26,232 bases of DNA. It comes from Cyanobacteria bacterium UBA11367 (GTDB lineage: Bacteria > Cyanobacteriota > Cyanobacteriia > Cyanobacteriales > Coleofasciculaceae). Under the pieces are notes generated by a model. It did not search any database and was not told where the DNA came from. It worked only from the letters and a program-made list of their open reading frames with translations. Made by a program: the position numbers and the translations under genes. Of the stretch, positions 3,726 to 21,522 are shown one piece after another (position 1 is the first letter of the stretch; every line of letters begins with the position of its first letter). The stretch spans positions 4,146-30,377 of the forward strand of contig DNOY01000251.1 of assembly GCA_003501765.1 (NCBI GenBank), in the 5' to 3' direction.

Positions 3726-5150
3726 TTATTGGCTAATTGGAATTTCAATGATAAACTCACTTCCTCTACCAAATTCACTATTAAATGATAATTTACCTTG
3801 GTGCTTTTCCACAATTATTTGATAGCTAATTGTCAATCCCAAGCCCGTACCGGAGCCAACAGGTTTTGTCGTAAAAAATGCGTCAAATAGTCTCCTTTGG
3901 ACATCTTCTGTCATCCCCAATCCATTATCGCTAATAGAGATGGTTATGCGATTATTATCAACGACATCAGTTTTAATCTTAATTGTAGGAATGGGACAAA
4001 GATCCAAGTCGCAAGTCTGATTTTTCAACTCAGAATCTCTTTCCTGAAGTAGGACACACGAAGCAACAGATAAACTCCTCCTTTCCTCAATATTTTTATT
4101 ATCCATTCCCGATTTCTTAATTTTATCCTCTAGCGCATCAATAGCATTAACCAAAATATTCATAAATACTTGGTTAATTTGACCTGCATTACATCTGACT
4201 TTAGGTAAGTCACCGTATTCTTTAATTGCATAAATTTCGGGCTTTTTACCTTTAGCTTTGAGGCGATGGTGCAATAGTAAAAGCGTGCTATCTATCCCTT
4301 CATGAATATCAGTTAATTTCCGTTGGGCTTCATCAATATGGCAGAAATTTTTTAGTAATAACACAATTTGGCAAATTCGTTCCGCACCTACCTCCATCGA
4401 TTTCAGCATTTTTGGTAAGTCTTCTTCTAAAAATTCTAAATCTAATTCCTCAATTTTATCATTAATTTCTGGTGTAGAATTACCGTAGGTTTTTTGATAT
4501 AGTTCAATTAGTTCTAAGATTTGTTGAGTATATTGCTTGGTAAGAGAAAGATTGCTATAAATAAAGTTGAGCGGGTTGTTAATTTCGTGAGCTACACCTG
4601 CTACCATCTGACCGATACTTGACATTTTATCGGCTTGAAATAGTTGGGTTTGAGTTTTTTGTAACTTTTTTAATGTCTCTTCAAGTTCTAAGGTTCTTTG
4701 CCTTTCTTTGGCTTGGGATCGCAACAATTCTTCATTTTGTTTTTCCAGTTGCTTTTGCAGATTTCTCAGGGTTAAATGGGTTTTGACTCGACACAATACC
4801 TCTGTGGGTTGAATCGGTTTGGTAATGTAATCAACTGCCCCCACATTAAACCCAGTAACTTTATCTCCTGTATCGCACAGCGCTGTCATAAAAATTACAG
4901 GAATATCTTGAGTTGCTTGGTTGGCTTTTAATAAGCTACAGGTTTGAAAGCCATCAATTCCCGGCATCATCACATCTAGCAAAATTAGATCTGGCTTACT
5001 ATATTCTGCTTGCTGAATGGCACTCTCACCATCTAGCGCCACCAAAACCTTAAATCCCGCATCTGTTAAATACTCGAAGATTAACCCTAAATTGGTGGGA
5101 TTGTCATCAACGATTAAGATTTTGCTTGTTTCATTGCTTTCCACAGTCAT
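3726..5150 (-). CDS. Hybrid two-component protein: N-terminal receiver (REC) - coiled coil - HisKA - HATPase_c
   Basis: The REC domain is 'ILIVDDNPTNLGL...PDLILLDVMMPGIDGF...PVIFMTA'. The H-box is 'AHEINNPLNFI'. The C-terminal ATPase G-boxes are 'DNGLGM' and 'GSGTGLGLTIS'. The start is ATG at 5150. Confidence 0.85.
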   Translation of the reverse strand: MTVESNETSKILIVDDNPTNLGLIFEYLTDAGFKVLVALDGESAIQQAEYSKPDLILLDVMMPGIDGFQTCSLLKANQATQDIPVIFMTALCDTGDKVTGFNVGAVDYITKPIQPTEVLCRVKTHLTLRNLQKQLEKQNEELLRSQAKERQRTLELEETLKKLQKTQTQLFQADKMSSIGQMVAGVAHEINNPLNFIYSNLSLTKQYTQQILELIELYQKTYGNSTPEINDKIEELDLEFLEEDLPKMLKSMEVGAERICQIVLLLKNFCHIDEAQRKLTDIHEGIDSTLLLLHHRLKAKGKKPEIYAIKEYGDLPKVRCNAGQINQVFMNILVNAIDALEDKIKKSGMDNKNIEERRSLSVASCVLLQERDSELKNQTCDLDLCPIPTIKIKTDVVDNNRITISISDNGLGMTEDVQRRLFDAFFTTKPVGSGTGLGLTISYQIIVEKHQGKLSFNSEFGRGSEFIIEIPISQ

Positions 5151-5464: not shown

Positions 5465-8400
5465 TCAAATACTACCGTTATATTGTTCGATAATTTCTCG
5501 CAATTGTTTCAGCTTAAATCTTTTAGCAAGCTGACGAATGTGGGTGGCTAAATTATCAAATTTACTATCTAATTTTTCGAGGTAATCTGCTCGCTCGATA
5601 ATTCCTTTAATATCACCCATTTTCACTAATTCTCCTAGCGTGGTAAGTTCAGAAACTGGTAAGCTGGCAACTATGAGTGAATTAGGATGGGGCGATCTAT
5701 TTTTCTCAGATTCGCGATCTTCGTAAATCCATTCTAGTCCTAAATGGTAAGAAATCACATTCAAAAGATTCTTTGATTTGACAGGTTTGGGAATAAAAGA
5801 TTGACAACCTGCTGCCAAACTTTCTTCCTGAATTGTCTGGGAAACACTTGCGGATAATGCGATGGTAACTGTATCTCTAAGCTGAGGTAGCTTCCGCAGT
5901 CTTCGGGTAGCTTCTAATCCATCTATGTTTGGCATAATCAAATCCATTAAAATCAAATCCGGTACAAAATCTACAGCTTGCTTGAGGCAGTCTTCCGCAT
6001 CTACTGCTTCCTTAATTTCAAATCCTAATGGTTTTAGTATTGCTAATAAAAGAGTACGGTTAACTCTATTATCATCGACAATCAAGATTTTGTGTTTCTC
6101 CCCTTTAAAACTAACAATCCGCCGATTTAGGGGTGGAGGAGCTTCTTCCCATTGGGAAACTGTAGGCAATTCTAAATCAAACCAAAATACACTCCCTTTA
6201 CCCGGAGCACTAGTGACATGAATTTCGCTATTCATTAGTTGAGCTAATTTTTGACTGATACCAAGTCCAAGTCCACTTCCTTCAGAGATATGAGTAGAAT
6301 CTCGCACTTGATGGAATGGCAAAAATATTTTTGCTAATTGATTAGGTGATATACCAATACCAGTATCTTCAATTTGAAAGCGGATTTTGGTAGTTGTGGG
6401 TTGTGGGTTGTGGGTTATGGGTTGTGGGTTATTGATTATTGGTCGAGGGCAGAGAGAATTAGTCCTTTTTTTTATAGTGAATTTTGACTTGTGAATTGGT
6501 TTATATGTTGTTGGCTCTATATATGAGTAATTAGTCATATTTCTGAATTTTGACTTGTGAATCTTGACAGGTGAAGTGGGGGAATATCCTACTTTTAAAT
6601 TTACTTCTCCTCGATCGGTAAACTTGATAGCATTACTGAGTAAATTGCTAATAATTTGCCGCAATCGTTTCTCATCGCCAATAATTCCGTTAGGTAGGGG
6701 TGACAACTGTTCGTAAGTAAATGTAATGTCTTTTTGTTCGGCACGTATTTGAAACAAATTGGCAAGACTTTTGAGGAAATTAGGAAGATGAAACTCTGTG
6801 GGAGATAGCTCCATTTTCTGGGCTTCAATTTTGGATAGATCTAAAATATCTTCAATCAGAGTAAGTAGATGTTCGCCACATTGGTAAATTATGTTTAGAA
6901 TATTCTGTTCTTCTTCGGTTAAATTACTGTCATTTTTTAAGATTTGAGTGTAGCCAAATATGCCATTAAGGGGAGTACGGAGTTCATGGCTCATATTTGC
7001 CAGGAATTCACTTTTGGCACGGTTGGCTACTTCTGCGGCTTCTTTGGCTTGTTGGAATGCTGCTTCTTGTTGCTTGCGATCGCTAATATCGATATAAGCA
7101 ACTACTGCTCCATAATTGGGGAGAGGAATGGGTGCAGCAGTAGCACTTAACCATACAACTTTTCCATCTGGCTTGACAATTCCTGCTTCAAAGTTTTCAA
7201 TTACTTTGTTTTCTTTTAAGGCTTTCATGGGGGCAAATTCAGAGCGAGGAATTTGACTGCCATCACTGCTAATAATTGACCATTTTTTATGGTTAAAGTC
7301 GCATTCAATGCCTTCATCATCAGACAAGCATAAAAATTTTTCGGCTCCGGTATTGGCTTCGATGGTATTGCCCCATTTATCTGTTAGAGAAATGCCAATA
7401 GGTAAAATTTCAAAGAGGGTTTGATACTTTAATTCGCTTTCGCGCAAGGCTTCTTCCATTCGTTTGCGATCGCTAATATTGCGAGATATGCCCCGATAAC
7501 CGCAAAATTGCCCCTTTTCATCAAAGATGGCAACGCCACTGGTTTCCAAAACTACTGCATGTCCATCTTTGTGGATGAAGGTATTTTCCATACAAGTAAA
7601 TGAATCGTGGCTGGAAAAAATATCGTCAAAAAAATGGGCAAGGCGATTCGCATCCCGCCAACTCATGAAATTATATGGAGATTGATCTTGAATTTCCGCT
7701 ACACTGTAGCCCAATAAATCTATAACTTTAGGACTGATGTAGCGATAAACTCGGTCTCTATCCATTTCCCACACCCAATCGCTGGTAGTTTCTACTAAAT
7801 TTCTGAATCTTTCTTCACTTTTACGCAACTTTTTCTCGGCTTGTTGCCGTTTCCTCAGAGCAGCTTGCTGTTCGTTAATATCTTCACATACTGTAGTAAC
7901 ATATTGTGGTAATCCTCGCTCGTTTTTGATTGAGGATACTGTTAATCTACCCCAAACAATCACACCATCTTTACGGATATATCTTTTATCAATTGTGTAG
8001 CTTTTTCGTTTGCCTTGCAATAGGGAAACAAACAAATCTCGATCCAGGGATAGATCCTCTGGATGGGTAAATTCGGCAAAATTAATTCCGACTATTTCGG
8101 TGGGAGAGTAGCCGAGAAAACGACAATTAGCTTCATTGCTGGCAAGGACAAACCCATCGAGATTCACTAGAGCAATTCCTACAGATATATTATCAAAAAT
8201 TGAGCGAAATCTTTCTTCACTTTCTCGGAGTGCGGCTTCCACTTGTTGACGAATCTTGCGGGATTCTTCCCTAACTTCAATTTGGGATTTTATCTCTCGA
8301 TTTCCATATTTTACCTCCTCTTTGTGTAGATTGGAAATATCGGTGGCAATACTATCAATTCGGATCGCTTTGCGATTTGAATTTCTGTTTAATCGCCATC

Positions 8401-8704
8401 GATGAGATAGCCAGCGAGTTTCTCCACTAGGGTGGAGGATTCGATACTCTAAATTCAGTATCCCTAGGGAGAATATCAAGGGTAGTTGATATTCTACTCG
8501 ATCCCGATCTTCAGGATGAATTACTTCTTTCCATAGATACTTATTTTCAATAAATTCAGAGAAATCTCGTCCGTATACAGTTGCCGCACTTGCACTTAAG
8601 CAAAGGCTTTCCCAAGTCATCGGGTTTACTGATAAAGCTACCTCGCTAAAATTTTTGAGAATATCTTCCAACCATTTCTGGTTTGCTCTACCTGTTTTCT
8701 TCAT
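5465..8704 (-). CDS. Multi-PAS sensor hybrid histidine kinase (PAS x3-4, HisKA, HATPase_c with large insertion, REC, ~120-aa unassigned C-terminal tail)
   Basis: PAS-like segments include 'TSDWVWEMD', 'NISVGIALVNLDG' and 'PIGISLTDKWGN'. The H-box is 'MSHELRTPLNGI', the N-box 'LLSNAIKFT', and the G-boxes 'DTGIGI' and 'GSGLGLGIS'. The REC domain is 'ILIVDDNRVNR...DLILMDLIMPNIDG'. The start is ATG at 8704. Confidence 0.85.
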   Translation of the reverse strand: MKKTGRANQKWLEDILKNFSEVALSVNPMTWESLCLSASAATVYGRDFSEFIENKYLWKEVIHPEDRDRVEYQLPLIFSLGILNLEYRILHPSGETRWLSHRWRLNRNSNRKAIRIDSIATDISNLHKEEVKYGNREIKSQIEVREESRKIRQQVEAALRESEERFRSIFDNISVGIALVNLDGFVLASNEANCRFLGYSPTEIVGINFAEFTHPEDLSLDRDLFVSLLQGKRKSYTIDKRYIRKDGVIVWGRLTVSSIKNERGLPQYVTTVCEDINEQQAALRKRQQAEKKLRKSEERFRNLVETTSDWVWEMDRDRVYRYISPKVIDLLGYSVAEIQDQSPYNFMSWRDANRLAHFFDDIFSSHDSFTCMENTFIHKDGHAVVLETSGVAIFDEKGQFCGYRGISRNISDRKRMEEALRESELKYQTLFEILPIGISLTDKWGNTIEANTGAEKFLCLSDDEGIECDFNHKKWSIISSDGSQIPRSEFAPMKALKENKVIENFEAGIVKPDGKVVWLSATAAPIPLPNYGAVVAYIDISDRKQQEAAFQQAKEAAEVANRAKSEFLANMSHELRTPLNGIFGYTQILKNDSNLTEEEQNILNIIYQCGEHLLTLIEDILDLSKIEAQKMELSPTEFHLPNFLKSLANLFQIRAEQKDITFTYEQLSPLPNGIIGDEKRLRQIISNLLSNAIKFTDRGEVNLKVGYSPTSPVKIHKSKFRNMTNYSYIEPTTYKPIHKSKFTIKKRTNSLCPRPIINNPQPITHNPQPTTTKIRFQIEDTGIGISPNQLAKIFLPFHQVRDSTHISEGSGLGLGISQKLAQLMNSEIHVTSAPGKGSVFWFDLELPTVSQWEEAPPPLNRRIVSFKGEKHKILIVDDNRVNRTLLLAILKPLGFEIKEAVDAEDCLKQAVDFVPDLILMDLIMPNIDGLEATRRLRKLPQLRDTVTIALSASVSQTIQEESLAAGCQSFIPKPVKSKNLLNVISYHLGLEWIYEDRESEKNRSPHPNSLIVASLPVSELTTLGELVKMGDIKGIIERADYLEKLDSKFDNLATHIRQLAKRFKLKQLREIIEQYNGSI
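6395..6572. repeat. Repetitive block inside the kinase CDS: GTGGGTT heptamer array (6395-6443) plus two perfect 18-bp direct repeats gaattttgacttgtgaat (6492-6509, 6555-6572)
   Basis: Direct reading of the DNA. On the minus strand it encodes 'NNPQPITHNPQPTT' and a duplicated 'IHKSKF' between the N-box and the G1-box of the ATPase domain. Confidence 0.7.
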
Positions 8705-21490: not shown

Positions 21491-21522
21491 CCTACTCCCT
21501 ACTCCCTACTCCCTACTCCCTA
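21491..21522. repeat. STRR heptamer array CCTACTC x ~4.5
   Basis: The sequence is cctactc cctactc cctactc cctactc ccta. It lies between psaD and trpE. Confidence 0.75.

Follow-up and report, generated by a model that had tools for sequence, protein, structure and literature searches.

The kinase gene and its conserved boxes

The stretch of DNA under study, called the window below, is 26,232 nucleotides long and comes from a cyanobacterium of the Coleofasciculaceae. It carries a gene for a hybrid histidine kinase, and the encoded protein finds an exact match in the UBA11367 MAG. The coordinates of the gene and of the features within it are collected in Table 1. Pfam recognizes a PAS_3 domain (1e-42), a HisKA domain (7.8e-23, aa 563-628), a Response_reg domain (4.2e-22) and a HATPase_c domain (3.9e-24), the last being split into two stretches by an insert. 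The receiver motifs are IVDDN at 875, LMDLIMP at 919 and IPKP at 971. In a motif scan, the H, N, G1, F and G2 boxes, as well as the receiver Asp and Lys, are all intact. With its H box, catalytic boxes, predicted DHp hairpin and Bergerat fold, and C-terminal receiver, the protein has the sequence and predicted fold of a hybrid histidine kinase.

Table 1. Features of the kinase gene and of its loop, with positions in the window
Feature	Position	Strand	Basis or remark
Hybrid histidine kinase gene, 1079 aa	5465..8704	-	ORF list: PAS domains, HisKA, HATPase_c, receiver
Codon of phospho-accepting His573 (H box SHELRTP at 572)	6986..6988	-	Motif and HisKA match
N box, aa 687-696, NLLSNAIKFT	6617..6646	-	Motif; helix preceding the hairpin, AlphaFold segment residues 139-155
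Hairpin strand 1, aa 700-707, EVNLKVGY	6584..6607	-	AlphaFold segment residues 161-168, pLDDT ~97
Loop extension, 63 aa (aa 708-770), predicted low-confidence coil	6395..6583	-	AlphaFold
14-nt (2 x 7) tandem repeat, 2.3 copies, N-terminal edge of loop	6544..6575	-	Tandem Repeats Finder, period 14, 83% matches
First copy (gene order) of the perfect 19-nt direct repeat, translated as IHKSKF	6544..6562	-	Repeat search
Second copy (gene order) of the perfect 19-nt direct repeat, translated as IHKSKF	6478..6496	-	Repeat search
A8 homopolymer run in insert (T8 on plus strand)	6466..6473	-
Heptamer tract, AACCCAC-type units on coding strand, adjoins strand 2	6393..6430	-	Tandem Repeats Finder
Hairpin strand 2, aa 771-780, TKIRFQIEDT, ends in G1 Asp	6365..6394	-	AlphaFold segment residues 232-241, pLDDT ~96
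G1 box, aa 780-785, DTGIGI	6350..6367	-	Motif position
ATP lid, aa 786-815, after G1, with F box FLPF at 794 and G2 box GSGLGLG at 809-815	6260..6349	-	Motifs
Receiver domain, aa 873-984, with DD, D and K residues	5753..6088	-	Pfam Response_reg and motifs

A long loop between the N box and the G1 box

An earlier note on this DNA, made from the sequence alone, had described an insertion of about 70 aa between two boxes lying some 100 aa apart, where 20-30 would be usual. The spacing is indeed long, and the figure was slightly high: N691 (in NAIKFT) and D780 (in DTGIGI) are 89 aa apart, and the motifs themselves are separated by 83 residues. The quoted usual spacing holds for minimal kinases only. 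In 97 homologues of this cyanobacterial family, the distance has a median of 45 and ranges from 27 to 95, and in the syntenic orthologues it is 41 aa. The excess itself is real and depends upon the reference, being 63 aa when the AlphaFold strands set the limits, 57 aa against GacS (7z8n) and 48 aa against the syntenic orthologues; the earlier size was a mild overestimate.

The AlphaFold model of this kinase segment, built with a 70-sequence alignment, reaches a mean pLDDT of 83 and a pTM of 0.75. In the model, the extension is at the tip of a beta-hairpin, the two strands of which are the one that follows the N-box helix and the one that ends in G1. Judging from the strand topology, this tip would be the strand end farthest from the nucleotide pocket. 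Segment residues 169-231, which make up the extension, are predicted without secondary structure, and pLDDT falls below 50 at residues 181-221, with further dips at the ATP lid. Low pLDDT suggests disorder, short of proof, and the extension is probably disordered. The earlier note had assigned the insertion to the ATP-lid region. In the published definition (PMC10017428), the ATP lid is found downstream of G1 and bears the F and G2 boxes. The insert lies upstream of G1, between two strands, so the assignment is not upheld, and the ATP lid of this kinase is of ordinary length.

Repeats in the insert DNA

The insert DNA is 189 nt long, with a GC content of 0.37 against 0.388 in the remainder of the gene. 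The coding frame stays open through it, as had been claimed, while the other five frames hold 3-7 stops each. The heptamer array that the earlier note gave as GTGGGTT is present where it was said to be. On the plus strand, Tandem Repeats Finder reports 5.4 copies of GTTGTGG with 93% matches, and the tract reads NNPQPITHNPQPTT on the minus strand. The 14-mer made of two heptamer units has 4 matches against 0.12 expected from shuffles. Only three consecutive units are perfect, the remaining units carrying substitutions. A quadruplex-type motif (G3N4 x5) falls within the tract at 6398-6428, on the template strand. The unit, CACAACC / GTTGTGG, is free of stops on either strand and appears to differ from the three classical STRR units of Calothrix.

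The loop holds other repeats as well. The third copy of the 14-nt repeat (family D1) stands at 79%, and a tandem of this repeat, CAAGTCAAAATTCA, recurs in a Moorena contig (L006). The direct repeats that had been reported as two perfect 18-bp copies are perfect and encode IHKSKF twice, but are 19 nt in length; their sequence, TGAATTTTGACTTGTGAAT, has 2 matches against 0.03 expected. The copies are 66 nt apart, with 47 nt between them, and are in frame because of this offset. An adjacent GACTAATT pair (6457-6470 and 6529-6542) extends the duplicated unit to about 35-40 nt. When the two duplicated units are aligned, 50 of 80 columns are identical, a score reached by none of 2000 shuffles. A full tandem duplication of 66-72 nt was considered and rejected, as the similarity beyond the 19-mer and GACTAATT, which is to say beyond about the first 40 nt, does not rise above shuffles (217 of 2000).

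Other identities were sought for the insert. Rfam gives no gathering-score match in the window, the sole match in 6250-6750 having E = 0.99, and a search for an intron, a structured RNA, an internal promoter or a terminator found none. Inteins are far larger than 63 aa, and the insert is too small for one and lacks the Cys/Ser ... His-Asn-Cys/Ser/Thr junctions, so this candidate was rejected.

The lineage-specific part could also stem from a mobile or foreign element of small size, for instance a MITE or small dispersed repeat, that landed in the loop and by chance stayed in frame. The sequence is AT-rich and intergenic-looking, the perfect 19-nt direct repeat can be read as a target duplication, and the 19-mer is also present, as a single match, in contigs of Moorena and Microcoleaceae. 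Yet the 19-mer has 7 matches in all in 596 Gb, where roughly 4 would be expected by chance on our own estimate, and both copies of the 19-mer occur only in the species representative (L007), in the same gene. An exact scan of 185,579 species genomes revealed no further 19-mer site in that representative. The 153-nt part of the insert at 6431-6583 was not met again when the window and the loci were searched by local BLAST. Only 47 nt would separate the putative target duplications, and copy 1 belongs to the 14-nt tandem array, which begins with a unit overlapping the ancestral edge of the loop. No inverted repeat lies within 6395-6583, the sole pair in 6300-6700 being at 6305-6348, and the GC content is the same as that of the remaining gene. 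On the genome scan, the BLAST search and the inverted-repeat search, the mobile-element reading was rejected, and we hold it to be very unlikely.

Orthologues and the ancestry of the loop

Gene order around the kinase (vault-protein gene, hybrid kinase, receiver-kinase) is kept in three loci (L001-L003). Two of the syntenic orthologues, one from Limnofasciculus baicalensis (P0003/L002) and one from a related metagenome contig (P0002/L003), share 59-64% identity with the kinase studied here. Like it, they carry a heptamer-derived tract directly before the KIRFQ strand; unlike it, they have the short 41-aa spacing and are devoid of a part of 144 nt in which both the 14-nt tandem repeat and the duplicated 19 nt are found. 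In a DNA alignment, positionally homologous CAACNNA tracts of L002, L003 and L005 adjoin the same strand, and the heptamer tract has been degraded by point mutation in this gene and its orthologues alike. The earlier note had counted the heptamer array as part of the extra DNA, which this shared tract contradicts. About 144 nt of loop DNA are specific to this kinase, namely the 14-nt tandem repeat and the local duplication with its perfect 19-nt core.

The comparison with orthologues proposed at the outset leaves the insertion standing: their loops are shorter, rather than of identical length without the repeats. A repeat-derived, in-frame expansion in a hybrid kinase, as first suggested, is thus confirmed, and lies inside the catalytic domain. 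No relatives between 64% and 98% identity were found, and a metagenome scan with a conserved 32-mer of the G1 strand gave 0 matches and recovered no intermediate relatives; without such relatives, the order of events cannot be reconstructed.

Stability of the loop among assemblies

Phase variation in length had also been proposed for this locus, to be checked by comparing strains. The loop protein is identical in length and sequence across eight assemblies of the species, which are consensus MAGs, several from one series (UBA), in which minority length variants would not show. The insert DNA is nearly invariant, with one synonymous SNP. The assemblies are close, at 98-100% identity, and the near-invariance fits recent common ancestry and constraint equally. 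A metagenome scan in which the two insert flanks could lie at variable distance gave 0 matches and recovered no population variants. A length difference of 221 nt between UBA11166 and the window, at an upstream intergenic AGTTGAC array, was discarded as an N-filled scaffold gap.

A contingency locus, in which slippage of the heptamer or of the A8 run reversibly alters loop length or the on/off state, would draw upon a 7-nt unit and an A8 run within an ORF, in a genome with abundant heptamer arrays, and upon the G3N4 x5 motif that the tract carries on its template strand. One heptamer gained or lost breaks the frame just before G1, with a stop at aa 781-788, and A7 or A9 in place of A8 brings a stop at aa 749-756. 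As a single-unit change truncates the protein, slippage would turn the kinase off instead of varying the length of the loop; a length change that keeps the frame requires three units at once. Against the contingency reading also stand the three consecutive perfect units, which are all that the tract retains, the single length in eight assemblies, and the decay of the tract by point mutation, which is the opposite of active slipping. The claim of phase-variable length finds no support in these results, and a contingency locus of either kind is highly improbable.

The possibility of an artefact of mis-assembled repeat DNA, or of a decaying pseudogene, was weighed too. Repeats do break assemblies here, as the N-gap of UBA11166 shows, and the PAS region has a patch of clustered differences. 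However, the 189-nt insert is present in eight independent assemblies, the 1079-aa ORF is open, its motifs are intact, the fold is confident around the insert and synteny is conserved. Either explanation is extremely improbable. The earlier view of a functional kinase looks sound, given the intact motifs, flanking strands with pLDDT of 96-97 and conserved synteny; the gene is probably normal and its product probably active.

Probable growth in place and the possible role of the insert

The reading that we favour, and regard as likely with good confidence, is that of a normal kinase with a probably disordered excursion of 63 residues at the hairpin tip, which grew in place by slippage and local duplication and is most likely neutral. 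In this process, replication slippage and local duplication would have enlarged the excursion in situ. The starting point may have been an old heptanucleotide tract, CAACNNA, common to the orthologues and directly before the KIRFQ strand. The lineage-specific part of about 144 nt would then have arisen as a 14-nt tandem repeat, the first unit of which overlaps the ancestral '..GTCAA' loop edge, and as a duplication, with a unit of about 40-66 nt, in which a perfect 19-nt core is retained. Three properties may have let the repeats persist: they contain no stops, their total length is divisible by three, and the loop around them would tolerate almost any length.

Alternatively, the insert might be a selected appendage rich in Pro, Thr and Lys, serving as a disordered docking site, a spacer or a regulatory (e.g. 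phosphorylated) segment. Its frame is open, an outcome that mononucleotide shuffling of the insert gives in just 4% of cases; yet an open frame is needed merely to translate G1, G2 and the receiver, and is uninformative on the sequence of the insert. The identity of the loop protein in eight assemblies agrees with selection as well, but assemblies so closely related are too close to reveal constraint. Long loops do occur at the same site: the Coleofasciculus-type homologues P0012-P0017 and P0019 have 78-95 aa there, and the plant cytokinin receptor CRE1 has 71 aa. Even so, loop sequence is not conserved between lineages, syntenic orthologues manage without the extra part, and the insert is of low complexity and repeat-derived. 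A selected role is rather unlikely; most likely the insert has none, and it would at most be a flexible appendage.

A hotspot for repeats across the kinase family

The hairpin loop before G1 is a family-wide repeat hotspot. Of 99 proteins, 8 have repeats with a period of 7 aa in this loop, a count that includes the kinase studied here and the near-identical P0001, and the density of such repeats is 2.4 per 1000 aa in the loop against 0.145 elsewhere in these proteins, which is about 17 times denser. Unrelated heptamers have settled there too: those of L004 are GGTAAGA-type, and L005 has AACAACA. The 26-kb window itself holds about a dozen heptamer arrays by Tandem Repeats Finder, and the intergenic arrays of this genome include GTCAACT-type and AACAACC units. 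Among the arrays of at least 2.9 copies in the window, the kinase tract is the only one wholly inside an ORF. Full-text literature searches returned no description of heptamer arrays in this kinase loop.

A bolder proposal would make this hairpin of cyanobacterial hybrid kinases a site of evolvability, repeatedly seeded by heptanucleotide arrays, and used either as a contingency switch through heptamer or A8 slippage, perhaps aided by the quadruplex-type motif on the template strand, or as raw material for lineage-specific docking appendages that rewire kinase partnerships. We consider this proposal quite unlikely.

As for growth in place with a neutral outcome, it offers a clean case, dated by synteny, in which heptamer repeats of the kind that characterizes filamentous cyanobacteria gave rise to new protein sequence, and points to one hairpin of the catalytic domain as the place where such sequence accumulates across the kinase family. 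The loop is an ordinary example of how such repeat-built loops grow. This is of use in annotation, where Pfam splits HATPase_c at the insert, and in aligning and modelling cyanobacterial kinases; the hairpin may also serve as a permissive site for engineered insertions into histidine kinases. The accepted working of these kinases is unchanged, and an ATP lid that switches length is not supported.

Comparison with known systems

The hybrid (type IB) kinases whose DHp-CA structures are solved, GacS (7z8n), RetS (6dk7/6dk8), ShkA (6qrj) and HK853 (2c2a), share with this protein the same HisKA and HATPase_c core, the same boxes and the predicted fold. They are the top Foldseek matches of the model, with E-values from 3e-20 to 2e-15, and phmmer against solved hybrid kinase structures reaches down to 4e-44. 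The difference lies in the hairpin turn, which takes 10 residues in GacS and 67 here. The sequence of the cytokinin receptor CRE1/AHK4 (7p8e) has 71 unaligned residues at the position of the insert and, like CRE1/AHK4, CheA has a naturally long spacer between N and G1. From these long spacers, the hairpin is known as a site that takes long insertions. To our knowledge, the insertions of CRE1 and CheA are features of whole families instead of single lineages, and we know of no origin of theirs from DNA repeats.

The heptamer contingency loci of Haemophilus influenzae (PMC8262952, PMC3315296) resemble the present tract in that a non-triplet unit lies within an ORF and a change of one unit truncates the product. 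They differ from it in that the tract of the kinase is short, imperfect and without length variation in eight assemblies. Closer to home, heptanucleotide tandem repeats of the STRR type occur in filamentous cyanobacteria, as recounted for Calothrix PCC 7601 and Nostoc by work cited in PMC4692102. For TAACTGA arrays, it has been argued that only stop-free units and orientations can persist within genes (PMC4679880). The kinase tract is like STRR-type arrays in being built of tandem 7-nt units in an array-rich genome. Those arrays are mostly intergenic and under-represented in coding regions, whereas the tract described here is translated, in frame, in a catalytic domain.

Integrity of the kinase gene

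Pfam recognizes in the hybrid histidine kinase several PAS domains, a HisKA domain (7.8e-23), a HATPase_c catalytic domain (3.9e-24) and a receiver domain (4.2e-22). Every testable defining feature of the hybrid-kinase family is present, and a motif search found all catalytic motifs intact. The HATPase_c match falls into two separate stretches, the second being aa 772-847 (profile positions 36-110), and the catalytic domain is therefore interrupted after about profile position 35. The insert (aa 708-770, window 6395-6583) has an open reading frame, with 3-7 stops in each of the other five frames; only 4% of insert shuffles keep the frame open, and its GC is 0.37 versus 0.388 in the remainder of the gene. 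It was found in eight assemblies, including UBA11166, UBA11367, UBA11149, UBA11159, UBA11366, UBA9226 and CTOTU46674, the UBA11367 protein being an exact match to the window kinase. The insert is real, and the kinase gene looks functional from its sequence. The shared occurrence, open frame and intact motifs argue against an assembly artefact or a pseudogene, either of which we consider extremely unlikely.

The C-terminal half of the gene is almost identical between the window and UBA11166, and 73 of their 75 nucleotide differences lie in the PAS region (window 7184-8333, gene nt 371-1520). This region also contains the end of the CTOTU46674 contig, at window 7309. The cluster and the contig end suggest strain recombination or chimeric MAG assembly across repeated PAS domains.

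Features of the kinase gene, its insert and the neighbouring genes (window positions)
Feature	Position	Strand	Details
Hybrid histidine kinase ORF	5465-8704	-	1079 aa, ORF list
Heptamer array	6393-6430		GTTGTGG x5.4 (unit given on + strand), 93% matches
Second short repeat pair	6457-6470 and 6529-6542		lengthens duplicated unit to about 35-40 nt
A8 run	6466-6473
Perfect 19-nt direct repeat	6478-6496 and 6544-6562		copies 66 nt apart
14-nt tandem repeat	6544-6575		includes upstream (gene order) 19-mer copy
G-quadruplex-type motifs	6398-6428	+
	21491-21522
	about 17-42
Receiver-kinase	3726-5150	-
Vault-protein ORF	8848-11493	-	881 aa, directly upstream of kinase
Enolase ORF	12081-13382	+
TGACAGT array	13366-13406		perfect, x5.9

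Structural location and length of the loop

The AlphaFold model (aa 540-870, 70-sequence alignment; mean pLDDT 83, pTM 0.75) matches GacS, RetS, ShkA and HK853. In it, a strand (segment 161-168, aa 700-707, EVNLKVGY) comes after the N-box helix (segment residues 139-155) and leads into 63 residues without secondary structure (aa 708-770; pLDDT <50 over segment 181-221). A second strand (segment 232-241, aa 771-780, TKIRFQIEDT) follows, with the G1 Asp as its last residue; pLDDT is about 96-97 in each of the two strands. Because two strands flank it in the model, the insert is predicted to be the turn of a beta-hairpin, joined at the G1-strand end opposite the G1 box. From this topology we infer that about ten strand residues would stand between it and the nucleotide site. 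The earlier note had placed the insert in the ATP-lid region. The ATP lid proper, which carries the F and G2 boxes, directly follows G1 (PMC10017428); in the query it spans aa 786-815, an ordinary length, and the label is therefore structurally wrong.

From N691 (NAIKFT) to D780 (DTGIGI) the query measures 89 aa. Across the 97 homologues with both motifs locatable, the median is 45 (range 27-95), with 7/97 at 78 or more. The query thus stands at the long end of the range, and loop length is variable throughout the cyanobacterial family. The excess is 57 aa over the solved GacS kinase (10 residues, 67 in the query) and 48 aa over the nearest true orthologues (spacing 41 aa); a published measure gives a distance of 112 for the query kinase.

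Repeat composition and history of the loop

The heptamer array and perfect direct repeat reported earlier are both present, the latter being 19 nt long, not 18. A two-unit heptamer probe gave 4 matches (0.12 expected), and the 19-mer gave 2 (0.03 expected). The 14-nt tandem, the second short repeat pair and the A8 run had gone unreported. On the coding strand, the repeat features read, in order, ...VKIHKSKFRNMTN...PIHKSKFTIKKRTN...NNPQPITHNPQPTT... Aligned with each other, the two duplicated units are identical in 50/80 columns, a score reached by 0/2000 shuffles; minus the 19-mer core, their similarity is not significant (217/2000). All three canonical G-quadruplex-type motifs in the window (G3+N1-7, four tracts) lie within heptamer arrays, and the one in the kinase gene is a putative G3N4 x5 on the template strand.

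The kinases of UBA11166 (P0001, nearly identical to the query), Limnofasciculus baicalensis (P0003) and a related metagenome contig (P0002) share a conserved gene order of vault-protein homologue, hybrid kinase and receiver-kinase, and are thus true orthologues. At the DNA level, a CAAC(C/A)(C/A)A-type heptamer tract lies directly before AAAATYCGCTTTCAA in the L. baicalensis locus (L002), the metagenome contig (L003) and a further homologue locus (L005), where it is AACAACA x6, encoding NNKQQTTNNKQQTT. These tracts align with that of the query. The query tract is thus homologous to them in position and of old standing, and was not recently inserted. The query-lineage-specific part is about 144 nt, from the ancestral '...GTCAA' left loop edge to the heptamer tract, and is itself made of repeats: the 14-nt tandem begins with a unit that overlaps the ancestral edge, and a second copy of a unit of about 40 nt lies 66 nt downstream. 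Both heptamer types resemble intergenic array units in the window, namely AGTTGAC/TGACAGT (8730, 13366) and AACAACC (76).

Origin of the loop extension

Slippage and local duplication would have lengthened the loop in situ, at a hairpin turn whose structure is permissive, and the added sequence would have persisted because it has no stops and keeps the frame. We consider this origin, most likely neutral, to be probable; that the insert is a selected flexible appendage seems unlikely. A mobile-element origin is quite improbable. When one genome per species was scanned for exact 19-mer matches, 7 were found, close to the about four expected by chance (our rough calculation for the amount of DNA scanned), and only the Coleofasciculaceae cyanobacterium CTOTU46674 locus has both copies, being the same kinase gene (99.7% identity over 7.3 kb). 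In Moorena the hit belongs to an independent CAAGTCAAAATTCA tandem. By local BLAST, a 153-nt part of the insert has no other copy in the window or the compared loci, and the insert lacks inverted repeats. An Rfam search for RNA elements had no match, and promoter and terminator signals did not rise above background.

The ATTCACAAGTCAAAATTCA motif also occurs in Moorena sp. SIO3H5 (L006 2516-2544), as a 14-nt tandem (CAAGTCAAAATTCA x2) in an apparently open frame, and in AT-rich non-coding DNA of a Microcoleaceae MAG (L010 1076-1095). The 14-mer may be a repeat type common to these cyanobacteria.

Phase variation

The array has no more than three perfect units in a row. With one unit fewer the frame meets a stop at aa 788, and with one more at aa 781, both close to the G1 box; a change of three units is needed to keep the frame. 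Shortening the A8 run to A7 gives a stop at aa 756, and lengthening it to A9 gives one at aa 749. The expected effect of slippage is therefore loss of the kinase, not the tuning of a lid. The loop has identical length and amino acids in the eight assemblies, with one synonymous SNP, and two metagenome scans yielded no further material. A contingency switch is highly improbable, as the tract is decayed in the query and its orthologues, which speaks against active slippage, and loop length is constant in the assemblies, which are consensus MAGs in which minority variants could still exist. The data do not support the earlier suggestion of phase-variable length.

In the UBA11166 assembly, a 226-nt N run (L001 2744-2969, ~ window 8741) falls exactly in the AGTTGAC intergenic array upstream of the kinase start. 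Such arrays thus break short-read assemblies here, and MAG array lengths are not trustworthy.

Neighbouring genes

The vault-protein ORF encodes a homologue of the major vault protein (Pfam Vault 2.6e-68, MVP_shoulder 1.1e-52, Vault_2/3/4). It adjoins the hybrid kinase and receiver-kinase pair also in UBA11166, Limnofasciculus baicalensis and the third contig, and a cyanobacterial vault-type protein linked to a two-component pair is perhaps worth its own study. The receiver-kinase also has a lineage-specific catalytic-domain expansion, in a different loop (N-box helix to first strand), its domain being 150 aa stretched over 106 profile positions (Pfam). Its N to G1 distance is 73 aa in the window; L002 and L003 have a visibly shorter one and L005 a longer one. 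The enolase ORF ends within the TGACAGT array: the coordinates place its in-frame stop (TGA at 13380) in the third repeat unit, so that the last 14 coding nt are repeat-derived.

A recurrent array site and comparison with known systems

Of 99 proteins (the query and 98 homologues that have both motifs), 8 show repeats of 7-aa period in the loop, the query and P0001 among them. At 2.4 per 1000 aa, such repeats are about 17-fold denser in the loop than elsewhere (0.145), and the cases outside are mostly coiled-coil heptads. A 7-nt unit read through all three frames yields such a period. The peptides vary by lineage (NNKQQTT, KRQEVRG, STINNQP, SPSPITN; weaker QLPITNY, QQPITNN), and at the DNA level this site in homologue locus L004 is occupied by an unrelated array of the GGTAAGA type; arrays have thus repeatedly arisen or been replaced at this loop. 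Of about a dozen heptamer arrays in the window, only that of the kinase loop is fully within a gene. Heptamer arrays are known in filamentous cyanobacteria, mainly as intergenic elements (PMC4692102), and it has been argued that within genes only stop-free units can persist (PMC4679880).

In the literature searched we found no account of heptamer arrays settling repeatedly in this kinase hairpin, and we offer their recurrence there as a modest new observation, not a new kind of system. The query is an ordinary hybrid-kinase family member with an unusually long, repeat-derived version of a variable loop. The hairpin site is known to accept long insertions, and in the plant cytokinin receptor CRE1 (entry 7p8e sequence) 71 residues are unaligned at this position.
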